DNA of 64,000 nt from Geosiphon pyriformis uo1 (GCA_016748015.1 JAAOMT010000523.1:1284546-1348545), one strand, 5' to 3'; positions 4,257 through 57,190 are shown, counted from the stretch's first letter. Notes: generated by a model from the sequence alone, not told the origin. Made by a program: numbers and translations.

Positions 4257-5203
4257 TGTTACTAGAGGTTTTTGGTCTTTTTTTTTAAATGTTGTTAATG
4301 TCTGTTTGTTGTAAATTCACATTTTCTAGAAGTAATTAAACCTCTAATAACTGAATTTATTTTCAAATTATTTCTATAATTTGAATTGCTGGACTTATAA
4401 GTAAAATGGCCAATTCTATGCCAGTTATTTTATGTAGTTACATTGTAGTAAATGTCAACTTTTTTCCAAGAATTGCTTGTTTAAAAACTTACTAAAATGT
4501 GTAGTTACTTTGCTGTAAAAGTCAACTCTTCTACAGGAATCTCATCTGTAGGCTACTCTAATGATTATAATAGGAAAAGAAAAAAAATATAAAAGAAGTA
4601 GAGTTTTGTCAAGTGAAATGTTTTTTATTTAAGCCTAGAATCACTAACAGATTACTGAAATTGGTAGCTAATTAATTTCAAAATGTTAATTGTGTTAAGA
4701 GAATTTCAAGTGTAATAATTTGGTTTTCAAATATTTAATTTTTATTTGAGATGTATAAAAAATGATTTGTTCTAATTAAGATATTTAAAGTAAAATATTA
4801 TGTTAAGATGTGAAAAGATATATTTTCTTAAAGAGAAAAGCTCTTCTTATATACAACTTGTTGTAGTACTAGTTTTTGAACTTGCACTTTTCTCCTTTTT
4901 ATAATTTTGGTGAACTAAAAGTACATTTCAGTAAACTACAAGTTATTTCTCTAAACTATTGATTATTTCGGCAAATTTTCATTACTTTTGGTGAATTTTG
5001 ACTATGTTAAGTAATTCAAAGTATTGTGTAATTTGATCATCTTAATTTCTATAGTACAAATTGGATTATTAATTAAATAATAATATTTGATAATTAATTA
5101 AATAATAAGTGATGATTGAAATAATAATAATATATACTAATTAATAATAGAAATTATAAGAGTAATTTTATGCTAATTAATAGCTAAAATTCTACTGGTA
5201 ACA
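4257..5203 (-). repeat. 3' LTR of element B (family L1)
   Basis: TGTTACTAG...CTGGTAACA, with the PPT GAGGAGGAAATTA adjacent on the minus strand. Confidence 0.92.
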
Positions 5204-5846
5204 TAATTTCCTCCTCAAAACTGAGCTCTGTTAAAGTTCAAACATTATCTGTAATATTGAGATAGTGGTTTAAAATAATTAAAGTAATCTAATCTGAAAA
5301 TTGTTGAAATTTCAGTTCTATGAGCTTTCCAATATACTGAATTTTTATTAAATAAAGTATTGAATTTTATAGGACATTTTTGCAAGTATTAAACAAATCA
5401 TAGAGTTTAAAAGCTGCTCTAAATTTGTAACAAGTATTTGTTAGTCTAACTGTTGTTTTGAACTTATTGTGAATTTGTTTTTGTATAGCTTTAGAAGTAA
5501 GATTTGTTGTTTTAAGTTCCAGTTTTCGTTCATAAAGTGTTTTTTCAATATAAAAATATCTATAAATAAGGGTATGTTTATTGTTTTGTTTATTGATAAA
5601 TAGTAGAAGTTTTTGTTAAATTGTGGCATTTGGTAAAATATCAATAAGAGCAAATAAGAAATTTTTTAAAGCTTGTTTTAAAAGTTCTGGTAATTAATTT
5701 CTAGTATAACTTCTTGTGTTTTTTCTATAAGGGTGATAATTCTGAGAATTGTTTACTATTGGAGCTGTGGTTTCTTTCTGAATGTAATTAATTTGATTTC
5801 CATTAATTGTTATGAATAAGTCAGGAAGTATTTTTAAAGCTAGCAT
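5184..5846 (-). pseudogene. Element B ORF3 (decayed homologue of 8991-9656)
   Basis: Colinear nucleotide similarity to A ORF3 from ATG (5846) to the stop inside the LTR; contains stops. Confidence 0.82.
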
Positions 5847-6971
5847 TAATTTTTGAAATATTTGTTAGATATTTCGGAAAATAATCATGATAAAAGTAAC
5901 TAACTAATAAAAAAAATAAAAAAAATTATTTTTGGGTATGGAGTTTTTACTTGTTTTTGGGTTTGGGTGTTTTTTGTAATTATTTACTATTTTTGTTTTT
6001 TGTTTTTGTGTATTATTAAAAAGATTATTGTAAAAATGTTAAATTAAGTATTCAAGTTTGGTTATTGTTCTATTATAACTATTGGTTCTAAATTTTGTGA
6101 AATATCTTCAGGATTAATTAAAGGAGAATGTATACCAATTTGTGGAATTAATAGTTCAGAATTGTTTCTGAAATGATAGTGTTTTAATCAATCTCCATGT
6201 GCAACTTTTGCTAGTACTTTGTTATCAAGTCTTAACTTGTATGATCTATTGCCTAAAATTTCGTTAATATAAAATGGTTTATTCTATTTATGTTCAAATT
6301 TTTTATTCCATTGTTTTTCAGTCTTAGTTCTGTACAAAATAACTTTATTTTTAACTTTAAATTTGTTAATAACTGGTGGCAATTTGTTGTCATGTCTTTC
6401 TTTTTGTTGAGCTTGAGAGTGTTCAATATGGATGGCTGCTATTTGTTTTTTTTTTTCAAGATACTAAAAAGAGTGTAAACTCTCTTTTAAAGTGTCTCTT
6501 AAAAGTTTTCTTTATTGATTGGTTGTACTGGATATGTTTCTATTGTGAAATTAATTGGTAATGTTGCTGTCTTTCCATAAATCAAATCAAATGATGTGTG
6601 TTTCATAGTATCTTGTTTTAATGTTTTTTATGTTAATAATACTGATAAAATAAAGATATCTTATTCTTGCTCAAAATCAGTTGAAACTTTAACTAAAGAT
6701 TCATACAATTTTCTATTGAAACATTCTATAAGTTTATTTGTTTGAAAATAATAAGCTGATAATAGAAATCTTTTGACATTAAATCATTTACAAATTTTTT
6801 GTATCAAGTTGTTCACAAAATATGTTTCTTAATCAGATAAAAGTTCAATTGGACATTCATGTTTACAAATAATGTTTTCATGGATAAAATTTGCTACTAA
6901 TTTTGCATCTGTTTTTTGGATGGCTCTAGCTTCAGACCATTTGGTAAGATAATCTATTATAACTGTAATAT

Positions 6972-8099: not shown

Positions 8100-9010
8100 T
8101 GTTACCAGAGGTTTTTGGTCTCTTTTCTTAAATATTGGTAATGTTAATTTGCTGTGAATTCACGTTTTCAGGAAGTAGTTGAACCTCCAATAATTGAATT
8201 TATCTTCAAATTATCTCCTATAATTTGAACTGCTGGGCTTATAAGTGGAATGGCCAATTCCTTGCCAGTTACTTTATGTAGTTACATTGTAGTAAACGTC
8301 AACTCTTTCCCAGGAATTGCTCATCTGGAAGCTCACTAAAAATGTGTAGTTACTTTGCTGTAAAAGTCAACTCTTCTACAGAAATCTTGTCTGTAGGCTA
8401 CCCTAATGATTGTAATAAGAAAAAAAAAGGAAAATAAAAGAAATATAAAAGAAATAGAATTTTGTCAAGAGAAACGTTTTCTATCCAGGCCTGGAGTCAC
8501 TAACAGTTTACTGAAATTGGTAGCTAATCAATTTCGAAATGTTAGTTGGATTTTGGGGATTTTCCAAGTACAATAATTAAAGAATTTGGTTTTTTCGAAT
8601 TATTTGATATTTATTTCTTTTTGTGTGTATAGGAACGGTTTTAAGAGATAAATCTAAAGTAAGATACATTTTCCAGAAGAAAAAAGCTCTTCTTTTATAC
8701 AACTTGTTGTAGTACTAGTTTATGAACTTGCACTTTTTTCTCTTTGCCCAAATTCCGGCAAACTAAAGATACATTTTGATGAACTACAAGTTATTTCGCT
8801 GAACNNNNNNNNNNNNNNNNNNNNGGGTATTGTGTAATTTGATCATCCTACTTTCTGTTATACTAATTAGATTATTTTAATTGAATCGTGATATGTGATA
8901 ATTGATTAAATAATAAATAATAATTTGAAATGATATTAATATACTAATGAATTATAGGAATTATAAGGGTAATTTCATGCTAATTAATAGCTAAAATTCT
9001 ACTGGTAACA
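8100..9010 (-). repeat. 3' LTR of element A (assembly gap 8805-8823)
   Basis: TGTTACCAG...CTGGTAACA 9-bp terminal inverted repeat; TATAAAAG on the minus strand near 8692-8699. Confidence 0.95.
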
Positions 9011-9656
9011 TAATCTCCTCCTCAAGACTGAGCTCCGTCGAAATCCAAGCACTATCTGTAATATTGAGATAGTGATCTAAAATGATTGAAGTAATCTGGT
9101 CTGAAAATTGTTGAAATTTCAGTTCTGTGAGTTTGCCAATGTATTGGACTTTCATTGATTGCAGTATTGGATTTTGTAGAACATTTTCACAAGTATTAAA
9201 CAAATCATAGAGTCTAAAAGCTGCTCTAAGTTTGTAGCAAGTGTTTGTTGGTCCAGCTGCTGTTTTGAATTCATTGTAGATTTGTTTTTGTATAACTTCA
9301 GGAGTAAGATTTGTTGCTTCAAGTTCCAGTTTTCGTTCATAAAGTGTTTTTCCAATTTGAAAGTATTTATAGATAGGGGTGTGTTCATTGTTCTGTTTAT
9401 TAAGAAGTAGTAGTAGTTTTTGTTGCATTGTAGCATTTGGTGGAATGTTAATAGGGGCAATTAGCAGATTTTCTTCTAGTGTCTGCTTCAAAAGTCTTGG
9501 TAATCTATTCTCAGAGTGACTTCTTGTTTCTCTTCTATAGAGGTGATAGTTCTGTAAATGATTTGCTACTGGGGCTGTGGTTTTTTTCTGAATGTATTTA
9601 ATTTGACTTCCATTAATCGTTATAGATAAGTCAGGGAGTGTTTTTAAGACTAACAT
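8991..9656 (-). CDS. Element A ORF3: 221-aa protein of unknown function in the env position; stop lies inside the 3' LTR
   Basis: Intact ORF with decayed homologues at the same position in B, C, E and F (motif YFQIGK...AAFRLYDLF...IGKLT). No signal peptide or TM helix seen. Confidence 0.82.
   Translation of the reverse strand: MLVLKTLPDLSITINGSQIKYIQKKTTAPVANHLQNYHLYRRETRSHSENRLPRLLKQTLEENLLIAPINIPPNATMQQKLLLLLNKQNNEHTPIYKYFQIGKTLYERKLELEATNLTPEVIQKQIYNEFKTAAGPTNTCYKLRAAFRLYDLFNTCENVLQNPILQSMKVQYIGKLTELKFQQFSDQITSIILDHYLNITDSAWISTELSLEEEIMLPVEF
9011..9023 (-). promoter_or_regulatory. Polypurine tract of element A (GAGGAGGAGATTA)
   Basis: Purine run immediately 5' of the 3' LTR on the sense strand. 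Confidence 0.85.
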
Positions 9657-9847
9657 TAATTTTTGGGATATTTGTTAAATATTTCGGGGAATAATCATAA
9701 TAAAATTGACTAATTATGAAAAGAGAGAATAAAGAAAATTATTTTTTTTTGGATATGGGGTTTTTTTTATTTGTTTTTGGGTTTGGGTGTTTTGTAATTA
9801 TTTGCTATTTTTGTCTTTGTGTTTTTAGTAGAGAATTATTGTAAAAT

Positions 9848-11233
9848 TTAAGTGTTCAAGTTTGGTTGTTGTTCTATTATAATTATTGGTTTTAAATTTT
9901 GGGGAATATCTTCAGAATTAATTAAAGGAGAATGTGTACCAATTTGTGGAATTAATGGTTCAGGATTGTTTCTGGAATGATAGTGTTTCAGTCTGTCTCC
10001 ATGTGCAACTTTTGCTAATATTTTGTCATCAAGTCTTAACTTATATGATCTATTACCTAGAATTTCGTGAATATAAAATGGTCCATCCCATTTGTTTTCA
10101 AATTTCCCACTCCATTGTTTTTCAGCCTTAGTTCTGTGTAAGAGAACATTATTTCTAACTTTAAATTCGTTGGTAATAGATGGTAATTTGTTGTCATGTC
10201 TTTCTTTTTGTTGAGCTTGGAAATGTTCAATATGAGCTGCTGCTATTCTTCTTTTTCCTTCCAGTGTACTAAGAAGAGTGTAGGCTCTTCTTTGGAGTGT
10301 CTCTTGAAAGTTTTCTTCATTGATTGGTTGCATTGGGTATGTTTCTACTGTGAAATTAATTGGTAATGTTGCTGTCCTTCCATAAGTAAGATCAAATGAT
10401 GTGTGTTTCGTAGTATCTTGTTTTAGTGTTCTGTATGCTAGTAACACTGATGGAATAAAGATATCCCATTCCTGTTCAAAGTCTGTTGAGACTTTGGCTA
10501 AAGATTCACACAATGTTCTGTTGAAATGTTCTACAAGTCCATTTGTTTGAGAGTGATAAGGTAATGATAGAGGTCTTTTAACATTGAACCGTTCACAAAT
10601 TTTTTGTATCAAGTTGTTCACAAAATGTGTTTCTTGATCAGATAAGAGTTCAAATAGGCATCCATGTCTACAGATAATATCTTCATAGATGAATTTTGCT
10701 ACTGATTTTGCATCTGCTCTTTGGATGACTCTAGCTTCAAGCCATTTGGTAAGATAATCCACTGCAACTACAATATAATGATTTTCTTGGGTTGTGATAG
10801 GTAATGGTCTGACTAAATCAATTCCAACTCTGTCAAAAGGTTGTCCAACTTTGATTGGATTTAAAGGTTCTGTGAGGTGAGTTCCTCTTCTTCTTTGGCA
10901 GTTATCACAAGATTCTACATATTGTCGAATGTCTTTTTGCATGTGAGGCCAAAAATAATGTTCAAGGGTTCTTTGAATTGTTTCCTCTTTTTCCAAGTGT
11001 GCTGAAGACGGATCTGTGTACATGTTGTATAATATTGTTTTTTTTTCATTCTCTTGTACTAATCTGAGTGGCTGGTTTGGTTTTCTGTGATTTTTATAAT
11101 AAATTTTATTCTGGTGTATGAAATATTGTTTTAATTGGTGTTGTAAGTGGTGTTTTTTACTTGGAGACCAGTTTTCTGGCATGGTAAGGGTCTCCAAATA
11201 ATTTTTAAGATTGCTGTAGTTTCTGGAGTCCAT
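9848..11233 (-). CDS. int: Element A integrase, stand-alone 461-aa ORF (zinc finger, DDE core, GPF module, no chromodomain)
   Basis: H...YFWPHM...CDNCQ; VGIDLV, LLSDQETHF, NGLVEHFN; KWDGPFYIHE...SYKL. Open frame but with likely damaging substitutions (first zinc-finger His appears as Tyr). Confidence 0.93.
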   Translation of the reverse strand: MDSRNYSNLKNYLETLTMPENWSPSKKHHLQHQLKQYFIHQNKIYYKNHRKPNQPLRLVQENEKKTILYNMYTDPSSAHLEKEETIQRTLEHYFWPHMQKDIRQYVESCDNCQRRRGTHLTEPLNPIKVGQPFDRVGIDLVRPLPITTQENHYIVVAVDYLTKWLEARVIQRADAKSVAKFIYEDIICRHGCLFELLSDQETHFVNNLIQKICERFNVKRPLSLPYHSQTNGLVEHFNRTLCESLAKVSTDFEQEWDIFIPSVLLAYRTLKQDTTKHTSFDLTYGRTATLPINFTVETYPMQPINEENFQETLQRRAYTLLSTLEGKRRIAAAHIEHFQAQQKERHDNKLPSITNEFKVRNNVLLHRTKAEKQWSGKFENKWDGPFYIHEILGNRSYKLRLDDKILAKVAHGDRLKHYHSRNNPEPLIPQIGTHSPLINSEDIPQNLKPIIIIEQQPNLNT

Positions 11234-11290
11234 TCTTGTTTGGTTATTTTGTTGGTAAGTTGGTAAGTTGTGGTGAAATTGTTGTTGGTA

Positions 11291-12664
11291 TTAATCTTGT
11301 CTCATTTTTGAGAGGCTATCGACATTGGTATGTAGTTTTCCTGGTTTGTGGTGTACAATATATTTGTAGTCTGCTAGGAAGTCATTCCATCAAGACTGTT
11401 TGGCACTCTGTTCAGTTTTCTTTTTATTGAGCCATTTGAAGCCAATGTTGTCCGTTATTATGTCAAATTCTTTTCCATTTTTCAGATATTGTTAAAAATG
11501 TTTAAGAGCCCAAATAACTGCAGCAGCTTCCAATTCAGTTGAGCCATATTTGAGTTCTGTTGGCTTGAGTGTTCTGCTGGCATAGGCAATAACTTGTTCT
11601 TGGCCATTTTCATCTAATTGTGATAAGATGACACCAAATACTATATGTGAGACATCAGTGGCTAATTGGAATCATTTGTTGAAGTCTGGGTAAGCAAGAA
11701 CTGGGGCTGTTGTCAATTTTGTTTTGAGAATTTCAAAAGCTTTTTGTTGTTCTTCAGTCCATTTGTATGGTATGTTTTTGTTGGTAAGATAATTGAGTGG
11801 TTTGGCAATTTCTAAGAATCCTTTTATGAATTTTCGATAGTAAGAGGCTAATCCCACAAATCCTCTTAGTTCTGTAGTATTTCTGGGGGTTTGAAAGTTT
11901 TTAACAGCATTGATTGTTCCTGGATTTGGTTTGATTCCATCTTTACTAACTATGTGTCCAAGAAAGATCAAACTTGTTTTTCCAAAGTGACATTTCTCAA
12001 TATTTAACTTTAATTCTGCTTTCTGTAATCGTTGAAAAACTTCTTGCAGATGAATGAGATGGGCTTCAAAGCTTGGTGAGTATACATCAGTATCATCAAG
12101 ATAAACAACTACTAATTGCCACAAAAGCCCTTCATAGACAACATCCATGAGTTGCTGAAATGTTGCTAGTGCATTGCAGAGTCCAAAAGGCATAACATTA
12201 AACTCATAATTTCCTTCTTGAGTGGTGAATGCTGTTTTGGGTCTATCTTTTGGGTCCAATTCGACTTGCCAGTATCCACTTTTCAGGTCTAAAGTTGAAA
12301 AAAACTTGGCTTTTCCCAGAGCATCTAGCATGTTATTAATTCTTGGAAAAGGGTAGGCATTTCCAATTGTAACACTATTCTGTTGTCTATAATCAACACA
12401 GAATCTAATTTTTTCGTTTTTCTTTTTAACTAAAACTACTAGTGAGGTCCAAGAACTTCTTGATGGTTGAATCAATTCGTTATTGAGCATTCTTTGGATC
12501 TCTTCTCTGATAAATTGGTGGCTGGTAGGTGGCACTCGATAAGCTTGTTGATGTTTTGGTAGAGCATCTCCTGTATGGATCTGATGTTGAACAATGTTTG
12601 TTTTTCCCAAGTCATTGTTGTCTTTTGCAAATATATCTGCAAATTCAGCTATCAATTGTTTCAA
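11291..12664 (-). pseudogene. pol: Element A reverse transcriptase plus RNase H domain
   Basis: IRFCVDYR, FSTLDLKSGYWQ, TAFTT, VMPFGL, VVYLDDT, FLGH, GFVGLASYYRKFI. RNase H continues in frame past 11672 with stops. Confidence 0.95.
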
Positions 12665-13135
12665 TTGTCTTTGTTGTTAAGGTTCTAAGGAATCCATATT
12701 AATTCGAGAGAGTTTTTCTTCCAACAAGTGGTAGTTTTCAGTAGTGGGAATGATATTTGTATTTGGGAGTAGAGTGTGCTTTATAATTTCGATGAATTTA
12801 GAGACAATTTGAGAGTTTTCATCTTGAAAGATATTGCTGTGTATGATTCCAATTTCTAATTTGTTTAATAAAACAATAGGGTAATTATTGGGGTTGTAGA
12901 ATGTAACTCAAAATTTTTTTATTCCTTTGGGAATATAAACATTTGGAATTGATATTTCATGCTTCAAACAGATTTGTTTATTGGATTCAAAGATTTGTTG
13001 TGTAGTGGTGGGTTTTGAGCAAGTGTAAATTTCGTGATGTTTTCCAAAAAGTGAAATGGTAATTGGCTGAGGAAGTTGAAGAATCTGGTGAGATTCATTT
13101 TGTGTATTAAGAACTATGTTTACTGGAACTGTAAA

Positions 13136-13510
13136 TCATCCAGTTGAACCAAAACCTTGAGTTCCTCTTTCACTTTTTCCCAATTGTTCTCTGTTGTTTA
13201 CTGATTGTAAACCCGAAATGTTGATTAAGGGTAAGTAAATTGCTTGAGCAATTTTTTCAGCATGTTCAATTTTGAATGGTTTGTCTGTCTCATTCTGTAA
13301 CATGATGGTAATGTCTCCAGTGTATTCTGTATCTATAACTCCTCCTCTAATATTGATTCTTTTGCTTGCCAATGATGATCTGGAGGCAATTTGAACCATT
13401 GCTTCTGGTGGAATTTTAAGAGCAATTTTTAAATTGATTTTTGTCAAAGACTTTGGTTGGAGAATCAAAGTATCTTTTTCTGGGTATCTCAAGTCATATC
13501 CAGCATCAAT
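13136..13510 (-). pseudogene. dut: Element A dUTPase domain within pol
   Basis: All five trimeric dUTPase motifs: DAGYDL, ASRSSLA, GGVIDTEYTG, KIAQ, RGTQGFGSTG. Confidence 0.95.
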
Positions 13511-13689
13511 TTTGTGTGCTTTTTCTGGTCTGATTCCTTGGCCATGGTTGTCAAAATATTTAAGATGTAGAGGTGGTTGCTTTTCAAGAAGATAGATGGG
13601 AGTGGTTGGTAGTTCTTCTACTTATTCAGATACTCCAAATTCGATTTCATTTTTATCATTCTCATCTGGCAGAGGAATGCTAAGAGCAT

Positions 13690-14290
13690 AACATTCTAAA
13701 CACCATTGGTCATCACAAAGCCTAACACATTCTTCACACAATTAAATGTTCATTTGCTCTAATCGTTGAATTTGAGCTTTTTTGGTCGGATATGTGTGGC
13801 TTGCAATTTGGTGGTAGGTTTCTACTTCATCTTCATAATCAAATCCAGCTAATTCCATAGTGTACTCAATATATTCGGCTTCTTTCATTTGGTGGACATC
13901 TTCTTGAGTGGCTCTATTGATTAATGCCATTGCTAGGTCAAAAATCATTTCAGCATCATAAGAGTAGTGGTAAAGTTTATTGAGAGCACTGTTGTATGCT
14001 GCATCAAATGGTGTCTCTCTTCTGACTTTTTCCGAGATTGATAGAGCATATTGACAGGTTTGATCACATACTCCTCCTCTCATTGCTACATCAATCCAAT
14101 TGCATTCTTCTGGTAGTATTTCTCCACATGTAAGACAAGGTGTGTTGTCCCATTTTCCACTTCTTTTTGGAGATCCAAATCGTTTTCTATGGCATGCTTT
14201 GCAAAAGTAACAGGTACAAGTTTCATATTCCTCTTCTAGAGAAATACATGCTTCCATTGATGAAAGTTTTTTGTTGCAATCTTTGCATTT
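13690..14290 (-). other. Cys-rich domain of pol between protease and dUTPase (putative Zn-binding)
   Basis: CKDC..CKAC..CLTC..CDQTC...CEECVRLCDDQWCLEC, with the same spacing visible in B, C, E and F. Confidence 0.75.
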
Positions 14291-16940
14291 GAGTGGAATA
14301 TAGAGTGGTTGTTTCTGTGGTTCTGGTGTAGAATATCTAACTTTTTTTCATCCCCTTGATTCTTTGAAAATCTCTTGTTCGGTTTCTTCAGCCCAATTGG
14401 ATGTTGATCCAAGAGCCATGTAGGTTTTAGTAAGTGGCATTTCTTTCTCCTCTTCAAATTCAAATACTGGAGCTTTTTCTGATCATTTATTAAAGGTATT
14501 ACAGGTTGCAGGTACTATAGTATATTGTCCTTGGTATGAGATTTTAAGTTCTTAAGTTTCCCAGTTCAGGTTTGCATTGGCCTTGAGAAGCCAATCATTT
14601 CCAACTAGAGCTTGGTATTGGGGTGCATCCATAATAAGAACTTTAACTGAAATGGTGATTCCATCAATTGAAAAAGGGAAATCATCAATTTCTCCTACTG
14701 GAGTCTTCTTCATATCATCAGCTGTGACAATAAATGTTTAAGCTGGTCTGTTTACGTTTTGTTTAAGTTGTTGCATCAGCTGGTAAGTGATAATACTTCT
14801 AGCTGATCCACTATCTAAGATTAAGCAAATGGGTTTTTCTTCTACTGTAGCTTCTGTGTACATGGCAGTAATTGCTTTCTGTTCATTGACTGCTGCATTA
14901 CTAAGCAGAAATGGTGATTCATTTGCCTCAAATTCAAATGGAAATATATCTGACAGATTAGCATTTTGGGCAATTTGAGCTGGGAGAATGGTGTGGTTGG
15001 AAGAGTTTGATCTTGGTGCTGCAATTTCACCTTCAGAAAGTGCAGTTTGTTGAAAATCCGATTCTTCTGGTATTGTAAGATAACTGGGTTGAGTGTGATA
15101 GTAATTGGGTCTTTGCTGGCCCGAATTTCTGGGAACCAACTGGTTATTTGGATTGATTCTGTTGTGGTTATTCTGCAATTGATTCTGGGGTGTGAATTGG
15201 TTATATTGAACCAATTTTCTTGCTAGTACTTGATATTGTTGAGTGAGTGGTGTCTGATATGGCTGAATTGGTAAAGGTTGCTGATATTGTTGCTGCATTG
15301 ATTGTGGAGCTGGTAGATAGTAACTGTTTTGATTTTGTGGTCTTGGTGAATAATAAGTTGGTGGTGGAGATTGGTAATAGGATTGTTGTGGTGAAGAGTA
15401 ATGTTGATTACTCCTGTTTTGTTGGTCTCTTTGTAATTTTCTACAATCTTGTTTCCAGTGTCCTGGAATTCCACAATAATGACAATTTTGAGATTGGTTG
15501 TTGGATGATGATCTAAAATTGTTTTGGTTGTGTTGTTGTGGGGGTTGATATCTTTCTGGTTGTTGTTGCTATTGTTGTTGGTTTGTGAAGTAGCTTTCAA
15601 CTTTTTTTGTGAGTTGGTTTATCTTTTCTTCAGCTGCTGAGCTGGTTTTTCCAATTGCAAGGTTTACAAGCTTGGTGTGATTTACTTCTTTCATTGCCAT
15701 TTCATAACTCTTTGCATGTTTAATAGCAGTTGCTAAGTCTGCTGGAGCATGTGGATGGACTTTTTTAATCAGTTTGTCTTTTAACCCTGTTATAAACTGA
15801 TCCAGAATTTGAGCATCAGAATAGTAGTCATTGGTTTCCAATTGTCGGATTCATCTAAGAAGTTTGTTAAATCTTCTGAGATAGGTTATAACAGATTCAG
15901 ATATTTCTTGTTTGATATTGCAAAAGCGGTTTCTGAGAGTGATAGAGGTATTGTTGTTGGTGAATTGTTATAGAAAAACATTTTTAAATGCTTGCCAGTT
16001 TTCAAATGGTTCTTCTAAATTTTCAAACCATTCTTCTGCTATTCCTTGGAGAAAGTAGGGAATTGCTTTGAGCATTCTTGCTGCAATCCAACCATTTGCA
16101 TCTCCTGCTTTTTGAACTTTGTCCAGCCATTCTTGGGGACTGGTATCATTGTTTTCACCAGTGAATTCTGGGATTTTTGCAATGTAAGCAGTTGCCATTT
16201 CTTCTTCATTTTCTGGAATTTCTTCTGGTTCTGATTCAGTTTCTTTACTTTCTAAGCTTTCTGAGTGATTACTTTCGTTTTCCTGTAAGTAATCAATGAT
16301 GTTGGCACTTGTTGATATTGGTTCTTACTGTTGAGTAGGATTTCTAGGTGACTGAAAATCTTCTGGTCTGGAGAAATGGCTAAGTAGTGAACTTGGTGTT
16401 TGTGGTTAAACAAGTGAAATTGGAAATGGTGTAATAGAAAGTGGTAATTTGACACTGGTTTCTTGTTTAGGTGTTTGCAAGTGTTTGGCAGTTGTCTTTT
16501 GTAGTGTTAGAGTGTTTGGAGTGGTTCTTGAGTATTGCTTCAATCTTTGTTTGCCTTTATTGCTTGTTTTTGTCTCTAATTCAAACTCAAAAGAGTATTT
16601 ACACTGTACTGGGTATTTTTCTTCACAATACTTAATAATATTAAAATTAAGTTCTTGGAAGTAGATAGCAAGTGTTTCACTGTTCAGGTCTTCTGTTCCC
16701 AAATGTGAATAATGCACTAAATTATTGTAGAGGTTGCTTCTAACTTCTGAAATGTTGTAGTTTCCAAAAAGATAATTGTTGATGCAGTTTTTAATGTATT
16801 GGTATACTGATTTCTTTACAATTTCAATTCCGTCTGAAATGTTGAATCTTTGCTTGCAGTGGGTGTAAATTAACTGGTAATACTCTAGAGTTGCTGTGTT
16901 TGGTATGGTCGCCACTTTGAATTTGTTGTTGCTGTGTTAT

Positions 16941-16958
16941 TTCCATGGGAGAGCACCA
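16941..16958 (-). promoter_or_regulatory. Primer-binding site of element A (TGGTGCTCTCCCATGGAA)
   Basis: Starts TGG 2 nt after the 5' LTR end. Confidence 0.85.
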
Positions 16959-16960
16959 AA

Positions 16961-17964
16961 TGTTACCAGAGGTTTTTGGTCTCTTTTCTTAAATATTGGT
17001 AATGTTAATTTGCTGTGAATTCACGTTTTCAGGAAGTAGTTGAACCTCCAATAACTGAATTTATCTTCAAATTATCTCCTATAATTTGAACTGGTGGGCT
17101 TATAAGTGGAATGGCCAATTCCTTGCCAGTTACTTTATGTAGTTACGTTGTAGTAAATGTCAACTCTTTCCTAGGAATTGCTCGTCTGGAAGCTCACTAA
17201 AAATGGGTAGTTACTTTGCTGTAAAAGTCAACTCTTCTACAGAAATCTTGTCTGTAGGCTACCCTAATGATTGTAATAAGAAAAGAAAAGGAAAATAAAA
17301 GAAATGTAAAAGAAATAAAATTTTGTCAAAAGAAACGTTTTCTATCCAGGCCTGGAGTCACTAACAGTTTACTGAAATTGGTAGCTAATCAATTTCGAAA
17401 TGTTAGTTGGATTTTGGGGATTTTCCAAGTACAATAATTAAAGAATTTGGTTTTTTCGAATTATTTGATATTTATTTCTTTTTGTGTGTATAGGAACGGT
17501 TTTAAGAGATAAATCTAAAGTAAGATACATTTTCCAGAAGAAAAAAGCTCTTCTTTTATACAACTTGTTGTAGTACTAGTTTATGAACTTGCACTTTTTT
17601 CTCTTTGCCCAAATTCCGGCAAACTAAAGATACATTTTGATGAACTACAAGTTATTTCGCTGAACTATTGATTAATNNNNNNNNNNNNNNNNNNNNNNNN
17701 NNNNNNNNNNNNNNNNNNNNNNNNNNNTTCGGCGAATTTCTGTAAATTTCGGCAAATTTTTGAATGTTACAAAGTTCAGGGTATTGTGTAATTTGATCAT
17801 CCTACTTTCTGTTATACTAATTAGATTATTTTAATTGAATCGTGATATGTGATAATTGATTAAATAATAAATAATAATTTGAAATGATATTAATATACTA
17901 ATGAATTATAGGAATTATAAGGGTAATTTCATGCTAATTAATAGCTAAAATTTTACTGGTAACA
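16961..17964 (-). repeat. 5' LTR of element A (assembly gap 17677-17727)
   Basis: Near-identical to 8100-9010. Confidence 0.95.
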
Positions 17965-18095: not shown

Positions 18096-21000
18096 TTAAT
18101 CTTGTCTCATTTTTGAAAGGCTATCAATATTAGTGTGTAGTTTTCCTAGTTTGTGATGTACAATATACTTGTAGTCTGCTAAGAAATTATTCCATTAAGA
18201 CTGTTTGGCATTTTGTTCTGTTTTCTTTTTATTGAACCATTTAAAGCCAATATTGTTAGTTATAATATCAAATTTTTTTCCATTTTCAGGTATTGTTAAA
18301 AGTGTTTAAGAGCCCAAATGACTGTGGCAGCTTCTAATTTAGTTGAGCTATATTTGAGTTCTGTTGGTTTAAGTGTTTTATTGATATAGGCAATAACTTG
18401 TTTCTGGTGTTACCAGTAGAATTTTAGCTATTAATTAGTACGAAATTACCCTTATAATTCCTATTATTAATTAGCATACATTATTATTATTTCGATTATC
18501 ACTTATTATTTAATCAAATTATTAAATATCATTACTCAATCAATAATCCGATTTGTACTCTAGAAATTAAGATGATCAAATTACACAATACCCTGAACCA
18601 TTTAACATAGTCAAAATTCGCCGAAATTAATGAAAAATCGCCGAATAATCAATAGTTTAGTGAAATAACTTGTAAATTTGCCAAAATGTATCTTTAGTTC
18701 ACCCAAATTGTAGAAAAGAGAAAAGTGCAAGTTCAAAGACTAGTACTACAACAAGTTGTATAAAAAAAGAGCTTTTCTCTTCAAGAAAATGTATCTTCTC
18801 ATAGTATCTTACTATAGCATCCTACTTTAGATATCTTAATTAAAACAAATCACCTTTTACACATTTAAATAAAAATTAAATATTCGAAAACCAAATCCTT
18901 AAATTATTACACTTGAAATTCTCTCAACACAACTAACGTTTTGAAATTGATTAGCTACCAATTTCAATAATCTGTTAGTGACTCCAAGCCTGGATAGAAA
19001 ACGTTTCCCTTAATAAAATTCTATTTCTTTTACATTTTTTTTGTTTTATTTTCTTTTCTTATCATAATCATTAGAGTAGCCTACAGACAAGATTTCTGTA
19101 GAAGAGTTAACTTTTACAACAAAGTAACTACACATTTTTAGTGAGCTTCCAGATGAGCAATTCCTGGGAAAGAGTTGACATTTACTACAACATAACTACA
19201 CAAAGTAACTGGCATAGAATTGGCTATTTCACTTATAAGCCCAACAGTTCAAATTATAGGAGATAATTTGAAGATAAATTCAGTTACTAGAGGTCCAACT
19301 ACTTTCTAGAAACATGAATTCACAGCAAATCAACATTAACAACATTTAAGAAAAGAGACCAAAAACCTCTGGTAACACTGGCCATTTTCATTCAATTGTG
19401 ATAAAATAGCACCAAATACTATATGTAAAACATCAGTAACTAGTTGGAACTATTTGTTGAAATTTGGGTAAGCAAGACCTGGGGCTGTTGTCAATTTTGT
19501 TTTGAGAGTTTCAAAAGCTTTCTGTTGTTCTTTAGTCCATTGATATGGCACATTTTTGTTGGTAAGATAATTGAATGGTTTGGCAATTTTTGAGAATTCT
19601 TTGATGAATTTTTGATAGTAAGAAGCTAATTCTACAAATCCTCATAGCTCTGTAATATTTTTGGAAGTTTGAAAGTTTTTGACAGCACTGATTGTTCTAG
19701 AGTTTGGTTTGACTCCATCTTTGCTAATAATGTATTCAAGAAAAATTAAGCTTGTTTTTCTAAAGTAATATTTTTCAATGTTCAATTTTAATCTTGCTTT
19801 TCATAATCATTGAAAAACTTTTCACAAGTGGATAAGATGAGCTTTGAAGCTTGGTGAATATACATTAGTGTTATCTAGATAGACAACTAATAATTGTCAT
19901 AAAAGTCTTTTATATACAACATCCATAAGTTGCTGAAATGTTGCTGGTATATTGCAAAATCCAAAAGACATAATATTAAATTCATAGTTTTCTTCTTGGG
20001 TGGTAAATGCTGTTTTGGGTTAATCTTTTAGGTCTATTTTGACTTGCTAATATTCACTTTTTAAGTTTAAAGTTGGCTTTTTCTAAAGCATTTAGCATGT
20101 CATTAATTCTTGGAAGAGAATAGATATTTCCAATTGTTATGCTGTTAAGCTGATAATAATTTACACAGAATCTAATTTTTCTATTTTTTTTCTTGACAAA
20201 AACCACTGGTAAGGCCCAAAAACTTCTTGATGGTTGAATTAATCAATTATTGAGCATTCTCTGGACTTCTTCCCTAATGAATTGGTGGCTGACAAGTGGT
20301 ACTCTATAAGCTTGTTGACATTTTAGTGGAACATCTCTTGTGTAAATCTGGTGTTAAACAATATTAGTTTTTCCAAGATCATTATTGTCTTTTGCAAATA
20401 TATTAGCAAATTCAGCTATCAACTGTTTCAATTGTTTTTGTTGTTAAAATTCCAAGGGACCCATGTTAATTTGAAATAGTTTTTCTTCTAAAAAATGGTA
20501 GTTTTTAATAGTAGCAATGATATTTGGGTTTGGAAATAGTATATGTCTTACAATTTTGATAAAATTGCTAACAATTTGAGGGTTTTTATTTTGAAAGATA
20601 TTGCTATGTATGATTCCAGTTTCTAATTTATTTAATAAAACAATAGGGTAGTTATTGGAATTGTAAAAAATAACTCGAAATTTTTTATTTCTTTTGGTAT
20701 GTAAACATTTGGAATTATGATTTTATGTTTTGAACAGATTTGTTTATTGGATTCAAAGACTTGTTGAGTAGTAGTAGATTTCGAGCAAGTGTAAATTTTG
20801 TGATGTTTTTCAAAAGATAAAATGGTAATTGGATGAAGAAGTTGAAGAATTTGGTAAGATTTATTTTGTACATTGAAAGCTATATTTACTGGAACTGTAA
20901 ATCATCCAGTTGAACCAAAATCTTGAGTTCCTCTTTTACTTTTTCCTAATTGTTCTCTGTTGTTAACTGATTGTAAATCTGAAATGTTGATTAAGAGTAG

Positions 21001-24000
21001 ATAAATTGCTTGAGCAATTTTTTTAGCATGTTCAATTCTGAATGATTTGTCTGTTTCATTCTGTAACATGATTGTAATGTCTCCAGTGTATCCTGCATCT
21101 ATAATTCCTCTTCTAACATTGATTCCTTTGCTTGCCAGTAATAATCTGGATGCAATTTGAACCATTGATTCTAGTGGTATTTTAAGAGCAATTTTGAGGT
21201 TAATTTTTGTTAAAGATTTTAGTTAAAAAACCAAAGTGTCTTTGCCAAGATATCTTAAATTATATTCTGCATCGATTTTATGGACTTTTTCTGGTTTTAT
21301 TTCTTGTTTATTGTTGTCAAAGTATTTGAGTTGTATAACAGGCTGATTTTTAGTAAGATAGATTAGAGTTGTTGTAATTTCTTTTTCTCTCTTAGATTCT
21401 CTAAATTAAATTTTCTTCTGGTTATCTTTGTTGAGTAGGAGAATGCTAAGGGCATAGCATTCTGAACACTCTTTGTTATTACAAGGCATGATACATTTTT
21501 CACACAATTGAATGTTCATTTGTTTTAATTGTTAAATTTGAGTTTCTTGGATTAGATAAGTATGACTTGCAATTTGGTGGTATGTTTCTACTTTATCTTC
21601 ATAGTTAAATCCAGCTAATTTCATTGTGTATTCAATGTATTCAGCTTTCTTTATTTGGTGGACATCTTTTTATGTGGCTTTATTGATCAAAGCCATTGCT
21701 AAGTCAAAGATTATTTCAGTATCATAAAAATAGTAGTAAAGTTTGTTGAGAGCACTGTTGTATACTGCATTGAAGAGTGTTCTTTTTCTGACTTTTTCTT
21801 AAATTGATAGAGCATATTGACAGATTTAATTACATACTTCTTCTCTCATTGTAACATCAATTCAGTTGTATTCTTCTGATAACATATTTCCACATGTGAG
21901 ACAAGAAGTGTTGTTCCATTTTCTACTTTGTTTGGAATATTCAAATCATTCTCTATGGCATGCTTTACAGTAGTAATAGGTGTGAGTTTTATATTTTTCT
22001 TTTGGAAAAATACATGCTTCTATTGATGAAAGTTTTTTGTTGCAATTTTTGCATTTAAGTGGGATGTAAGATGATTGTTTCTGTGTTTCTGGTGTAAAAT
22101 ATCTAATTACATTTCATTTTCTGGTCTCCTCAAAGATTTCTTGTTCTGTTTCTTCAGCCCAATTGAATGTTGATCTAAGAGCCATAAAGGTTTCAGTAAT
22201 TGGTAATTCTTTTTCCTCTTCAAATTCGAATACTAGAGCTTTTTCAGATTTTTTATTAAAAGTACCACAGGTGGCAAGTACTTTGGTATATTGTCTTTAG
22301 TATGAAATTTTTAATTTTTGGGTTTTTCAGTCTAAATTTGCATTGACTTTGAGAAGCCAATCATTTCTGACAAGAGCTTGGTATTGAGGTGCATTTATAA
22401 CTAAAATTTTGACTGGAATTGTAATTTCATCAATGGTAAATAGGAAGTTGTTAATTTCTCTTACTGGTATTTTTTTTATATCATCTGCTGTAACAATAAC
22501 TGTTTGGACAGATCTGTTAACAGTTTATTAAAATTGTTGCATTAATTGATAGATAATAATAATATTAGCAGATCTATTGTCTAGATTGGTTTTCTTTCTA
22601 CTTCAGCTTCAGTATATATAGCTGTAATTACTTTTTGTTTATTAACTGCTGCATTGCTAAGCAAGAATGGTGATTCATTTGCTTTAAATTCGAATGAGAA
22701 TATATCTGAAAGGTTGGTGTTTTGGGCAATTTGGGCTGGTGGAATAGTATTGTTGGAAGGGTTTGATTTTGGTGTTGTAGCTTTACCTTTAAAAAGTGCA
22801 GTTTGTTGAAAATTCTGTTCTTCAGACATTGTAAGATAACTGGATTGAGTGTGATAGTAATTGGGTTTTTGCTAACCAGAATTTCGAAGACCAACTGGTT
22901 GTTTAAGTTGATTCTGTTGTTGTTATTCTAAAATCAATTTTGAGGTGTAAATTGGTTTTGGTAAACCAATTTTTAAGCAGATATTAGACATTGTTGAGTA
23001 AATGGTGCTTGATATTGCTGAATTGGTAAAGGTTGCTGATATTATTGTTGTATTGATTGTGGAACAGATTGATAGTAATTGTTTTGATTTTGTGGTCTTG
23101 GTAAGTAATAAGTTGGTGATAGAGGTTGGTAATAAGATTGTTGTGGTAAAAAGTGATATTAATTACTCTTATTTTGTTGGTCTCTTTGTAGCTTTCTGCA
23201 ATCTTATTTCCAATGTTCTGGAATTTTACAATAATAACAGCTCTGTGGTTAACTGTTTGGTAATGATGAGTAGTTGTTTTGGTTTCATTGTTGTGATGGC
23301 TGGTATTTTTGTGTTTGTTGTTGCTGTTGTTGGTTGGTGAAATAGTTTTCAACCTTTTTTGTAAGTTGGTCATATTTTTTTTTCAGCTGTTGAGCTGGTT
23401 GCTCTAATAGCAAGATTTACAAGTTTTGTGTGATTGGCTTCTTCTATAGTTATTTCATAATTTTTTGCATGTTGGATAGCAGTGAGCAAATCTTTAGGTA
23501 AATGTAGATGCATTTTTTTTATGAGTTTATCTTTTAATTCAGTAATGAATTGATTCAAGATTTGGGCATTAGAATAGTATTCATTGGTTTCTAACTGGCA
23601 AATTTTTCTGAGAAGTTTGTTGAACTTCTCTATGTAGGTTATGACTGATTCACTTGGTTTTTGTTTGATATTTCAGAACTGATTTTGAAGGGTAATAAAT
23701 GTGTTGTTGCCAATAAATTGTTGTAAAAAAGCATTTTTGAATGCTTGCCAGTTTTCAAATGATTTCTTTAAGTTTTCAAACTATTCTTCAGCTGTTCCTT
23801 GGAGAAAATATGAAATTGTTTTGAGCATTTTTGCTGCATTCCATCTATTTGCATCTCCTGCTTTTAAGACTTTATCAAGCCATTTTTGGGGGTTGGTATC
23901 ATTATCTTCATCAGTGAATTCTGGAATTTTTGCAATATAAGCAGTTGCCATTTTTTCTTTGTTTTCAGTGGTTTCTTCTTGTTCCAATTCGGTTTTTTTA

Positions 24001-24668
24001 CTTCCTAAGTTTTCCAAATGATTACTTTGGTTTTTTTCTAAGTAATTAAGAAAATTGGTGCTGGTTGATATTGGTTTCTGTTGTTGAGTAGAATTTTTAG
24101 GTAACTGAAAATCTTCTGGTTTTGAGAACCAGATAAGTGGTAAGTTTGGTGTTTGTGGTTAAACAAGTAAAATTGAAAATAATGTAACTGAAAGTGAAAG
24201 TTTGGTGCTGATTCTTTGTTCTGAAATTTGCAAGTGTTTGGCAGTTATTATTGGTGTTTTTGGAATGGTTGGAGTGATTCTTGAGTATTGTTTCAATTTT
24301 TGTTTGCTTTTGTTGCTTGTTTCTGTTTTTGATTTAAAGTCAATAGTGTATTTGGACTGTACTGAATATCTTTTTTTACAATACTGAATAATGCTAAAGT
24401 TAAGTTCTTAAAAGTAAATGTTAAGTGTTTTACTATTAAGGTCTTCAATTTTCAATTGTGAATAGTGCAATAAATTATTGTAAAGACTGCTTCTAGCTTC
24501 TGAAATGTTGTAATTTCCAAAAAAATAATTGTTGATGTGGTTTTTGATGTATTGGTATAATGTTTTCTTGAGAACTTTAATTCCGTCTTGGATGTGAAAT
24601 CTTTGCTCACAGTAGGTGTAAATTGACTGATAATACTCTAAAGTTGTTGTGTTTGGTGTGGTCATCAT
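18096..24668 (-). pseudogene. gag-pol: Element B gag-pol, including dUTPase at about 20902-21275; interrupted by solo LTR 18408-19377
   Basis: Colinear with A gag-pol: MATAYIAKIPEF, GIIDAGYTG, RGTQDFGSTG, YLDNTNV. Confidence 0.9.
18408..19377 (+). mobile_element. Solo LTR, family L1, in RNase H of B
   Basis: TGTTACCAG...CTGGTAACA, perfect TSD CTGG/CTGG. Confidence 0.93.
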
Positions 24669-24713
24669 TTTAAAGTTGTTATTGCTATGTTATTTTTGTG
24701 TAAGAGCACCAAA

Positions 24714-27875: not shown

Positions 27876-28250
27876 TATTATGAATAAACTGGTGGAGTAT
27901 AAATGTAATATTTGGTGCTCTTAATTTGTATTGAAACCATTTTGGTCTTTTATTTGTTTGGTATTATCAGTCTCTAAAAATTTTTTCTATATCTAAATTT
28001 ACTCATGGAGTTCTTTGATTATAAAATACAGAGTTCTAATTTCATGTGTTACAACTTTCCATAAATGTGAACTATCTTTTTTGAGCTAACAAGTATAGTT
28101 GTTAGGGTTTGGTGGTGTCTTTTTGCCCTTTTGGTAAGCTAATAAAATAATGTTAATATTTAATTTTTAGGGAGAGCTTTTCTCTTTTACTAAGGTATCA
28201 CAAAGTCTATTTTCAGACAGTTGATTTTTCTATGTTGCCACTTCTCAAGA

Positions 28251-28921: not shown

Positions 28922-30498
28922 TTAGAATTGAGTTTCTGCAAAATTGTCTATATCTATTAATATGGCTTTGTTTGTGTAATGTTTAATTGTTATGTTGAGT
29001 ATTGTTTTTTGTAGGTCTTTTAACTGTTGGTTGGTTATTCATCCTATGTTGTTAACTGTTATAGTTTTTATAAATCTATATAACAGTACATTTGGATAAT
29101 ATTGGAAAACAATATACAGTCAATATGCTGTTTTGTAATATAAGATCAGGTTGCTTCTTCCTACAAATTTTTCTACTTGTTGTATTGTTTTTTTGTTAAA
29201 AGTTTTCTGTTCAAGATCTCTGTATGGTGTCTTCAAATTTAGCTGTTTACTAATTTTGTTGAACCAATATATTAGAGGAAGTTTTTCTTTCCATTTTTGG
29301 ATGTTATTATGAGATGGTTTTCTTGGTATATTTAATTGTTGATCTCCCATTTTAATTGCAATCAGTCTCTTGTGAGTTCCTCTATTTTATGTGTTGGATA
29401 TTAATGATAATATATTAAAGGTTTTCTCTTGATGTTGTAATATAAGTCTTCTCTTTAATTCTAGTTGTCTTTGTATGTTGTGTACTCTTTCTCAAAGGTT
29501 AATCTGAAGTTTACCCATTGTCTGGGGTCTTCTCTGAAGCTATTCTTACAATTGTCTGATGTGTTTTTCTAATCTAGAAACACGGAATATTAATGGCCTT
29601 TTCACGATTTCTCTAAGTATATAATAAAGCTTTTTTCAATTTAATTAGTAACCACATAAATAATCTTGATCAGAGATTATTCTTCCAAAGAGTTTAAAGA
29701 TGGAATGATAGTTTTATTTGCTAGAGAGAGTATGTGAATTCTATTGTTAATCTCATAATTGTGATGTTCATTCAATTTATTATTTTTATTAATTCTTTTT
29801 GAATAAGATTTTATTTAGATATTTGTTGCTTTTAGTTGAAGCTTGTTTTTTTTTATTATTAAAACTATTGTATATATATAATTATTGTTTTACAAAATAA
29901 CGTTTTATAATACTCTATTTCTGTTATTTCTAAATAGTGCTTGCTGCTATTGTGAAATAGTATTTGCTGCTTTTGCACAATAATGCTTGCTCCTATTGTA
30001 AAATAGTGCTTGTTGCTATTACATAGTAGTGTTTGCTGTTATTTGTAAATTATTTCTTTTTATAAATTGTTGCTGTGCTATTTCATAATTGACTGATTTA
30101 TATTATTTATAATTCCTATTAAATTTTTGAATTGTAACAGTGTTGTCTGGTGTCTATTCCCTTGTTTTAGAGAGTTTAGTCTTGCAAGCTAAAGAAGCTT
30201 TAATTTTTTTTTATTTGAAGACTAAGTATTCTTTTTTTTGACTTTTTTTAGTTCCTCTTTTTTTTTTTTTCTATGTCTCATCTGAAAGAGATTTTTTTTT
30301 TCTAATTTCTTTCTTTTAGACATTATGTAGGAATAAGAATAGTTGGTTCTAGTTGAATTCTTGTCTATTTCTTTCTTTCTTTTGTCTTTATATCTTATCT
30401 TTTTTTTATTGATAATAATCTTTAGTTGAGATGTTAATTGCTAAATTGCTTTAAATAGTTGTTTTAAAAGTTGTAGAATTTGATTTGAAAAATCCATG
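28922..30498 (-). pseudogene. Element E ORF3, interrupted by solo LTR 29305-30139
   Basis: MDFSNQILQLLKQLFKAI... and ...KTFNKKTIQQVEKFVGRSNLILYYKTAY*LYIVF...NFAETQF*, homologous to F and C ORF3. Confidence 0.78.
29305..30139 (-). mobile_element. Solo LTR, family L5 (835 bp), with about 6 x 23-bp U3 repeats (AAATAGTGCTTGCTGCTATTGTG) at about 29930-30075
   Basis: TATTATGAG...TTGTAACA termini, TSD ATGT/GTGT, absent from the colinear ORF3 of F, TATA run near 29870. Confidence 0.8.
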
Positions 30499-30580
30499 TT
30501 AAAGATTCTATTATTTTTTACTGTTTCTTTTTGGATATTATATATACTTGAATTTCCCAATTTAATTTGCTGTATATTGT

Positions 30581-43122: not shown

Positions 43123-43860
43123 TTAGAATTGAGCTTCTGTGAAATTATATGTATTTGTTATCTTGGCTTTATTTATATAGTGTTTGATGGTCACATTGAG
43201 TATTGTTCTTTGTAGATTTTTGAACTGTCGATTGATTATTTGTCCTATGTTGTTAACTGTTATAGTCTTTATAGATTCATACAACAGTATATTTGGACAA
43301 TGTTGGAAAGCAGCATATAGTCAGTATGCTGCTTTGTAATATAAGATCAAATTGCTTTTTTCTATGAATTTTTCTACTTGTTGTATTGTTTTTTTGTTAA
43401 AATTTTTCTGGTTAAGATCTCTATATGGTGTCTTTAAATCTAGTTGTTCACCAATTTTGTAGAACTAATATGTTGGAAGAAGTTTTTTTTTCTATTCCTG
43501 GATATTGTCAGGTGTTCATTCTCCTGTTTCAAGAAATTTGATCCTACAAGCTAAAGCTTCTTTAATTTCTTTGAGCTCAAAGACCAAGTATCTTCTTTTA
43601 TAAACTTTTTCTCATTCCTCTACTTTTTTTTTAAGCTCTACTCGAAACAATTTAATTCTTTTTTGTAAAATTTTTTTCTTAGGCAAAGTGTAGGGATAAG
43701 AATAATTAGTTTTAGTTAAACTTGTGTCCATTTCTTTTTTGCTCCTATCTTTATAGTGTTTTTTTTTTCTATTAATTGTTATTTTTATTTGAGCAGAAAA
43801 TTGTTGAATTGTATTAAATAGTTGTTTTGAGAGTTGTACAATTTGATCTAACAGGTCCAT
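43123..43860 (-). pseudogene. Element F ORF3
   Basis: MDLLDQIVQLSKQLFNTIQQ... continuing to ...YYKAAY*LY...NFTEAQF*. Confidence 0.8.
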
Positions 43861-43941
43861 GTTGAAAGTTCTATCATTTTTTTGCCACTTTTTAAATGAT
43901 ATATATATTTAAATTCTTTAATTTAATTTGCTGCACATTGT

Positions 43942-56501: not shown

Positions 56502-56554
56502 TCTACCAAAACAATATATAAGAAACCAAAGCACATGACAATGACAACAATAAG

Positions 56555-57190
56555 ATAGAAATTTTAGACCACATTCATTAATTAGCACAACAATTATTTC
56601 AGGCCATAAATTAACAACAAACAGACATAAAAATAATGATCAATTATCAAACCATCTGCTATAAAAACACTAAAAAAGAAAAAAAAAAGACCACACCATA
56701 TTAATAAGCACATAAAAAAGTCAACAATAATATTAACAAAATTGTTAAAAAAGTAAAAAACATTTTTAAAAAACTGATTGTTACTATCCAACCAAGAAAA
56801 ATGACAACAAAAAATTGGAATCAATAGATAGAACAATTTTCAGTTTTATATTGCTATTGATATTTGAAACAAAAACTAAGGATCCAAAATTTGTATATTG
56901 ATCAAACCAAAAGAGTCTTCAATCAAAAGATTATATAAGACATAGAAAATTTTATTGGAAAGAAATCCAATTTGAATATTTATATTAAAACTATCTACCA
57001 CTTTTTAAGACTATTCAGAGATACTACTACAACCAGAAATTAATAGCTTATTAATCAATTAATAAAAAAGAATGATCAATAGTCAATTTAAGAAGCTTTA
57101 CAGAAAAATAGATAAGATAATCTTAAAAAAAAAGTTATGAAATTATTATAAGAAAGAATATTAAAAAATTTTGATGAAGTTCAATATTAA
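56555..57190 (+). pseudogene. Element C ORF3
   Basis: (M)EILDHIH.LAQQLFQAIN...RVFNQKII.DIENFIGKKSNLNIYIKTIYHF...NFDEVQY*, homologous to E and F ORF3. Confidence 0.72.

Follow-up and report, generated by a model that had tools for sequence, protein, structure and literature searches.

A putative accessory gene shared by three diverged families of dUTPase-bearing Ty3/gypsy retrotransposons in Geosiphon pyriformis

Element A and its third open reading frame

The window analyzed here, a stretch of 64,000 nucleotides from the Geosiphon pyriformis genome, is an AT-rich, nested pile of LTR retrotransposons; LTR sequence makes up about 41% of this genome (PMC11952901). Element A, which is nested within the integrase of element B, is a Ty3/gypsy LTR retrotransposon as indicated by its LTRs, target duplication, PBS, PPT and the gag-PR-RT-RH-INT gene order. 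All features of A given below are on the minus strand. The 3' LTR (8100..9010) has TG...CA ends, followed by a 4-bp target duplication, CCAA, and matches the 5' LTR (16961..17964) at 880 of the 892 compared bases (98.7%); a TGG-initiated PBS-like site (16958) comes after the 5' LTR. The gag-pol gene (9848..16936) is a single frame of 2362 codons without a frameshift that contains 19 stops, compared to 115 and 189 in the other frames, and encodes, in this order, gag, CCHC, protease (a weak Pfam match), a Cys-rich block, dUTPase, RT, an RNase H region and integrase with SH3_Tf2-1. Given the 18 premature stops in this frame, element A is dead. In the Pfam scan of the 480-aa integrase ORF of A, only H2C2, rve and SH3_Tf2-1 were detected and no chromodomain; by this Pfam criterion, A does not belong to the chromovirus branch.

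The LTRs of A are nearly identical despite the 18 premature stops, and N gaps are located in the same region of both; either a decayed copy was mobilized in trans or the LTRs were homogenized by the assembly. The Cys-rich block (13622-14550, approximately 300 aa), located between the protease and the dUTPase, contains several CxxC motifs and is kept in six elements of the window, with no Pfam match for the 201-aa part that was scanned. Upstream of the gag core, there is an in-frame extension of about 200 codons (16325-16936; A/B dN/dS of about 0.86), with no ATG seen ahead of the gag-core Met and no significant Pfam match. Five further LTR copies of the A family (18405-19381, 25691-26643, 46435-47380, 51462-52432, and 58455-59403) are mostly apparent solo LTRs that lie within B, F or C or adjoin the 5' LTR of B. 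Long A/T homopolymers are found at a matching site of the E/F-family LTRs (28250-28400, 39050-39100, and 42470-42510).

Between the integrase and the 3' LTR, element A contains a third open reading frame (ORF3; 8991..9656) of 221 open codons, with a conserved, predicted helical core at approximately residues 90-200, an acidic tail and the last codons inside the 3' LTR. The plus strand of this segment contains many stops, and the frame is open on the minus strand only. The original prediction described ORF3 of A as intact. The 221-codon frame is indeed there, running from 9656 to 8991, but is weak evidence of an intact gene: at the stop density of A's own gag-pol, 221 open codons are expected by chance with P≈0.19, and an upstream in-frame ATG is cut off by a TAA. 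The extension that begins with this ATG (14 codons, 9657..9698; ATG at 9698) and is interrupted by the TAA at codon 8 (9675-9677), a stop common to A and B, is likely the ancestral N-terminal helix of the protein. It is separated from the pol stop by a 149-nt spacer (9699..9847) that contains no TATAWA. At the opposite end, the PPT of A (9014..9023) lies within the ORF3 coding sequence, and in both A and B, ORF3 runs across the PPT and stops 20 nt into the 3' LTR. The claim that this frame always ends at the PPT is thus accurate for elements E and F, in which the stop abuts the purine tract and the database relatives of F end at the same residue, but not for A and B. The LTR terminus (8991-9010) encodes the last ORF3 residues, and the endings of two A subfamilies consist of 6 and 10 residues, respectively, so that LTR changes alter the tail of the protein. 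The 3' ORFs of foamy viruses overlap U3.

Homologs of ORF3 are present in all five integrase-bearing elements of the window, in the sense orientation and between the integrase and the 3' LTR; all five copies sit in dead elements. In agreement with the original prediction, the copies in B, F, E, and C are decayed. ORF3 of B (5184..5888, minus strand), an element of the same family as A, is 70% identical to that of A and contains 6 premature stops and no frameshift. In F, which represents a second family, the gene (43123..43860, minus strand) consists of 245 codons, with 5 premature stops, and its stop is directly before the PPT. The copy in E, also of the F family (28922..30498, minus strand), is frameshifted and split by an 839-nt insert. 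The third family is represented by C (56555..57190, plus strand; 3' end approximate), in which there are 14 stops in 222 codons and the start reads ATA. The insert in E (29306-30144) is probably a solo LTR of another family, with no second copy in the window.

Conservation across families and signatures of selection

A single-sequence tblastn search from A detected ORF3 of E (E-value 7e-4) and F (0.006), and missed C. Trimmed profiles were constructed from 41 sequences for A (every third match and the reference) and from 19 segments for F; an untrimmed HMM of 120 matches that included integrase-fused gene models failed to detect the copies in E, F, and C (best iE 0.26) and was discarded. The A and F profiles align over 194 columns, end to end from residue 1, with an HH probability of 95% and an E-value of 4.1e-8. 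The A-family HMM yields 21.7-38.7 bits with F-family proteins, and the F-family HMM yields 23.6-29.7 bits with A proteins, scores that none of 500 shuffles reached in either direction. ORF3 of C gives no signal with the A HMM (395 of 500 shuffles score as high) and 32.8 bits with the F HMM (0/500), and is, judging by these sequence comparisons, homologous to ORF3 of A by way of the F profile. On the six-frame translation of the window, the F profile recovered A, B, E, F, and C, and on the reversed window, none. A search with the decayed C sequence itself gave 0 of 114 candidates. The C-terminal module that had been aligned across families by eye is therefore similar above chance at the profile level. 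Core identity across the families is 27-28% over 96 residues, and between the three families, integrase identity is no higher than 48-53%, which indicates that the ORF3 gene is old.

The N-termini had been thought to differ by family, which is probably not the case: with the upstream Met added, the N-terminus of A aligns with the motif of C, E, and F, with moderate support. When the N-terminus is compared alone, hhalign gives an E-value of 5.6e-4 and a probability of 30%, and in six comparisons of A with F or C, the score was reached by 0, 9, 14, 36, 227, and 975 shuffles per 1000. As the alignment of the A and F profiles begins at residue 1, an N-terminal helix plus hairpin seems to be common to the families, with moderate support when tested alone.

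All 139 database relatives listed (the best 120 of 201 from the A search and 19 from the F search) are hypothetical proteins of Geosiphon pyriformis. In 22 of these, the gene model also takes in pieces of gag-pol, as would be expected if ORF3 occupied the same position elsewhere in the genome. Upstream starts are found in 3 and downstream starts in 26 of the 49 listed matches that have the A-type ending, whereas for the second ending (41 listed matches), the respective numbers are 22 and 12 (Fisher P=1e-5 between endings), a difference that gene-model start choice could bias. These counts suggest that an ORF3 of 235-245 residues is probably the ancestral form; the 221-residue version may have arisen from it as a genuine variant in subfamily A1. 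Beyond this genome, no match was found on viral contigs (0 of 218 with ORF3 and 0 of 604 with the integrase C-terminus) or by tblastn in phage genomes, and the metagenome contigs gave 0 of 593 in one search and 1 of 195 in another. This one metagenome locus, on a bacterial-looking, gene-dense contig (L107:228-407), with similarity limited to 42 residues at the seed motif, was judged to be a chance match.

For A and B, the dN/dS of ORF3 is 0.47, 0.56, and 0.62 at transition weights of 3, 6, and 10 (upper 95% bootstrap bounds 0.69, 0.81, and 0.92), compared with 0.32-0.43 for RT, 0.44-0.58 for dUTPase and 0.78-1.37 for three LTR frames, and the transversions are distributed over the codon positions as 5/0/11 (P=0.001). 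The A/B values are not near 1, but the +1 frame control of the same pair is also low (0.55-0.75), and for F and E, the dN/dS of 0.53-0.74 has upper bounds of 0.77-1.04 that reach 0.98-1.04 at the higher transition weights. The transversions in the F/E core are flat by codon position (4/4/4). In all these pairwise values, ancient change under selection is confounded with neutral decay; a DNA-level value of 1.17 for F versus C was discarded given that the sequences are unalignable at such a distance. Independent support comes from subfamilies A1 and A2, which have the same residue at 53 of 60 positions in the core (141-200) but at only 33 of 60 in the N-terminal part. ORF3 was under purifying selection in the active ancestors of these elements, with an imperfect signal. 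The description of ORF3 as a maintained accessory protein accordingly applies to those ancestors, as indicated by homology, codon selection and core conservation, but not to copy A itself, which is dead. The alternative of a functionless ORF3, either a relic that evolves neutrally or a frame open by chance, would accommodate the modest openness in A and the location of every window copy in a dead element, but is very unlikely and largely refuted by the protein homology across families with integrases about 50% identical, the zero second-position transversions in A/B and the conservation centered on the core.

Between A and B (11601-17960 vs 19379-25691), C→T (305) and G→A (296) changes dominate in all contexts; cytosines have changed in 54% of CG, 30% of CC, 28% of CT, and 22% of CA contexts, and the CpG observed/expected ratio in A is 0.22. 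This pattern is unlike classic RIP, which is CpA-specific.

Predicted properties and candidate domains of the ORF3 protein

The ORF3 protein was originally described as basic, and nucleic-acid binding was proposed on this ground. In the ORF3 sequences, decay runs as E→K in 17-21% and as K→E in 1-2.5%, and the majority-residue charge (K+R vs D+E) is 22 vs 24 in A1, 24 vs 24 in A2, and 37 vs 35 in F; the closest database copy has a pI of 5.8. The basic appearance is thus an artefact of G→A decay, and once the decay is removed, this argument for nucleic-acid binding fails. Along the protein, the core is weakly basic and, in A1, the tail is acidic (its final 29 residues include no K/R and 7 D/E). 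The expectation of a helical protein fares better: although weak overall (pLDDT 53 and 62), the AlphaFold models are mostly helical and agree on three consecutive core helices (94-113, 119-134, and 139-161; block pLDDT 71-91 over residues 71-150), whereas the later helices are predicted with low confidence.

The neutral net charge and the acidic tail, together with conserved positions that are chiefly hydrophobic or structural, would suit a protein-protein adaptor that does not bind nucleic acids and acts in particle assembly, in transport along the coenocytic hypha, in import into the nucleus or, as a substitute for the missing chromodomain, in the targeting of integration. An adaptor could also be read into the integrase without a chromodomain match and the nesting of the elements in the pile, but nesting is to be expected in a genome that is 41% LTR (PMC11952901). 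There is no positive evidence for any partner, and the weak matches of ORF3 that recur, described below, involve small helical domains found in phage proteins and nucleases; an adaptor role therefore appears unlikely, even if it is the strongest competitor of a DNA-binding one.

The absence of a signal peptide and of a transmembrane segment is borne out by hydropathy, the test used here in place of a dedicated signal-peptide predictor: the best 19-residue Kyte-Doolittle window is at most 1.5 in 120 of the 120 A-family proteins listed and at most 0.9 in three F proteins, and there is no TM-like stretch. Without a hydrophobic segment, ORF3 does not appear to be env. A degenerate envelope gene or another membrane-acting protein might be suspected from the env position, a possible splice acceptor in the A/B spacer and 3-4 N-x-S/T sites, but such hydropathy, the small helical model and the lack of any env family among the Pfam matches render this possibility extremely improbable.

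No match to a characterized domain reached significance in Pfam, PDB or fold searches. The Pfam scan of the window ORF3 gave no match; a PDB sequence search with the combined A and F profile produced nothing at E≤10; and five fold searches with the two models (pLDDT 53 and 62) produced nothing at E≤0.001 (best VIA Z 6.8 and 4.8). Below the thresholds, the Pfam family matched by most members is DUF1016_N (PF17761), with 8 of 52 at E≤1 and a best E-value of 0.0028; in 3 of 27 proteins, the score was 12.9-14.6 bits, under the Pfam gathering score of 32.8 bits. The similarity is in register from profile position 22, free of gaps over 65-68 residues, and starts at an aromatic-x-I-G motif. The same stretch was matched by phrog_23683 in 9 of 22 members (best E-value 1.4e-4); in bacterial genomes, phrog_23683 gave 0 of 5 and 1 of 301, the single match containing stops. 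Sub-threshold leads in the Atlas searches were DUF3102 (PF11300; 58% of the cluster, 0.86) and Plasmid_parti_N (16%, 0.85). The counts behind these weak domain matches are not independent, the members being close relatives. An HMM that we built from 72 YhcG-type DUF1016_N sequences scored 6.2 bits, less than the best shuffle (6.9), with no signal in the F-family proteins. With hhalign, ORF3 matched DUF1016_N and DUF3102 (shallow profiles, with 22 sequences for DUF3102) with a probability of at most 1.2%, in a set-up that gave only 0.9% for DUF1016_N versus DUF3102 and may be too blunt. Both domains are helix-turn-helix-like, judging by their sequence pattern. The DUF3102 alignment contained no informative solved relative.

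In the predicted core of ORF3, a long helix containing Y/W-x-I-G is followed by a second helix, a turn, and a helix with A-x-R-L-Y-x-x-F. The likeness of this core to DUF1016_N, DUF3102 and phrog_23683 is a weak, in-register one over about 65 residues, with an all-helical prediction, and falls below every cut-off; on this basis, the odds that the core is a nucleic-acid-binding domain of the DUF1016_N/DUF3102 type appear to be about even. In YhcG, as described in PMC1189080, DUF1016_N is 'mainly alpha-helical', with no confident fold and no DNA-binding activity shown, and is followed by a C-terminal PD-(D/E)XK nuclease (PMC1189080), whereas ORF3 has no nuclease match.

The top match in each of the two Atlas searches was a cluster of closterovirus coat proteins (0.92 and 0.91), with phage translation repressors also scoring high (0.89-0.90); the second rank was occupied by an unnamed Mucoromycota cluster of 190 aa (0.92), which may be a true relative of ORF3. 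The viral hits would fit an RNA-binding accessory protein, either a silencing suppressor, as in one of the original hypotheses, or a captured coat- or nucleocapsid-like shield against the host small-RNA system. PMC5902531 describes 3' accessory proteins of plant pararetroviruses that act against silencing, and the heavy C→T/G→A mutation of the elements suggests that host pressure is real. Conversely, only 134-151 of 256 features are shared in these matches, where true family members typically have 170, and a score of 0.9 is attained by 4-10 of 100 shuffled proteins; Closter_coat (PF01785) gave no Pfam match in 52 members, no coat protein stood out among the rows of two BFVD searches, and the protein is not basic. 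An RNA-binding role is accordingly somewhat less probable than an adaptor function.

Expression, possible function and implications

The pol-ORF3 spacers of C, E, and F are 71-92 nt long and contain TATAWA. The TATA-like boxes are located 47 nt upstream of the ORF3 start in F (43900..43907, minus strand), 48 nt in E (30539..30546, minus strand) and 40 nt in C (56515..56522, plus strand). The chance of TATAWA is 0.08-0.18 per spacer and about 0.015 for two independent families. In the ORF3 spacers of A and B, there is no TATA box; that of A contains a pyrimidine run followed by TAG (9710-9738), with the TAG 12 nt ahead of the upstream ATG, and the run with TAG is also present in B. This could be a 3' splice acceptor. 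Taken together, these signals make it probable that ORF3 is expressed separately, from its own short transcript.

The ORF VI of CaMV, encoding P6/TAV, is likewise a 3' accessory gene with its own promoter, preceded by a 106-bp spacer with a TATA (PMC5902531). This resemblance in 3' position and spacer recalls the original suggestion of a reinitiation factor for downstream cistrons. In element A, a single frame of 2362 codons covers gag-pol and no ORF follows ORF3, which leaves no downstream cistron in need of reinitiation. Furthermore, TAV-like activators are unknown outside Caulimoviridae by the account in PMC5902531, and no caulimovirus protein is among the Pfam matches of ORF3; this function is largely refuted by the layout and is highly improbable. 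The foamy virus Tas/Bet region offers another parallel, with a 3' accessory gene transcribed from its own internal promoter and a Tas protein that binds DNA and activates the LTR (PMC13220597). With both systems, the analogy is in layout only, without sequence similarity, and the promoter and activity of ORF3 are putative.

Among retrotransposons, the closest counterparts in position are the aORF-3S class (Athila, Bagy2), sense extra ORFs between pol and the 3' LTR (PMC7264820). As characterized in that source, they resemble the Geosiphon ORF3 in orientation and position, in being found in all copies examined and conserved like other element proteins, and in having no assigned function. ORF3 shares with this class the position and the consistent presence (five of five window elements) as well as the evidence of selection, the latter with the caveats of the +1 control and the F/E pair. 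The plant ORFs are env-like, some with transmembrane segments (PMC7264820), unlike ORF3, which has none, comes from a glomeromycotan host and shows no match to those proteins in Pfam. For fungi, Gypsy elements that encode dUTPase and an 'add. ORF of unknown function' were depicted in 2010 (PMC2864245); among them, PosPlaTy3-5 also has the dUTPase between protease and RT. That account is centered on chromoviruses, whereas no chromodomain was detected here, and the extra ORFs can be compared by description only (PMC2864245). The dUTPase-bearing elements of bdelloid rotifers encode a non-env ORF3, typically as a separate transcription unit, but their ORF3s are GDSL esterases, DEDDy exonucleases, or TM or coiled-coil proteins and are family-specific (PMC5408684); the Geosiphon ORF3 has no enzyme match and is common to three families. 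In the literature outside subscription journals and Repbase/GyDB, we found no description of the ORF3 protein family, nor, again with subscription journals aside, any paper that joins Glomeromycotina, LTR retrotransposons and dUTPase.

The following scenario can be proposed. ORF3 would be an extra gene of three diverged dUTPase-bearing Ty3/gypsy families that was kept by selection in their active ancestors and expressed separately; in C, E, and F, an internal TATA promoter would drive this expression, and in A and B, splicing might account for it. Its core would be a three-helix nucleic-acid-binding domain resembling DUF1016_N/DUF3102, and the target would be the element's own LTR or internal promoter, with the LTR being switched on or protected. 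A nucleic-acid-binding transactivator is still the leading guess for the function, now on the basis of the weak domain leads and the gene layout. In full, the reading of ORF3 as a separately expressed, soluble, helical DNA-binding regulator, Tas-like in action and unrelated to Tas, is plausible by analogy, if somewhat short of an even chance. A more specific version, in which an ancestor of these glomeromycotan elements acquired a prokaryotic or phage helical DNA-binding domain of the DUF1016_N/DUF3102 type and converted it into a transactivator that the element itself encodes and transcribes separately, is distinctly unlikely. If true, it would make these elements 'complex' retrotransposons with foamy-virus-like regulation and could help explain why LTR sequence accounts for about 40% of the genome.

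Altogether, by the sequence evidence, ORF3 appears to be a genuine accessory gene that is old and was kept by selection; its family has no name, and its function is putative. More than a hundred 'hypothetical' Geosiphon proteins, and well over that number, are hereby flagged as transposon cargo, and the charge analysis indicates that G→A decay can give proteins of dead transposons a basic look. Extra ORFs at the 3' end of LTR retrotransposons are common and almost none has a known function; ORF3, which is old, encodes a small, likely soluble protein and is represented by more than one hundred natural variants, lends itself well to testing. If ORF3 binds the LTR, a fungal retrotransposon would encode its own regulator, like complex retroviruses.
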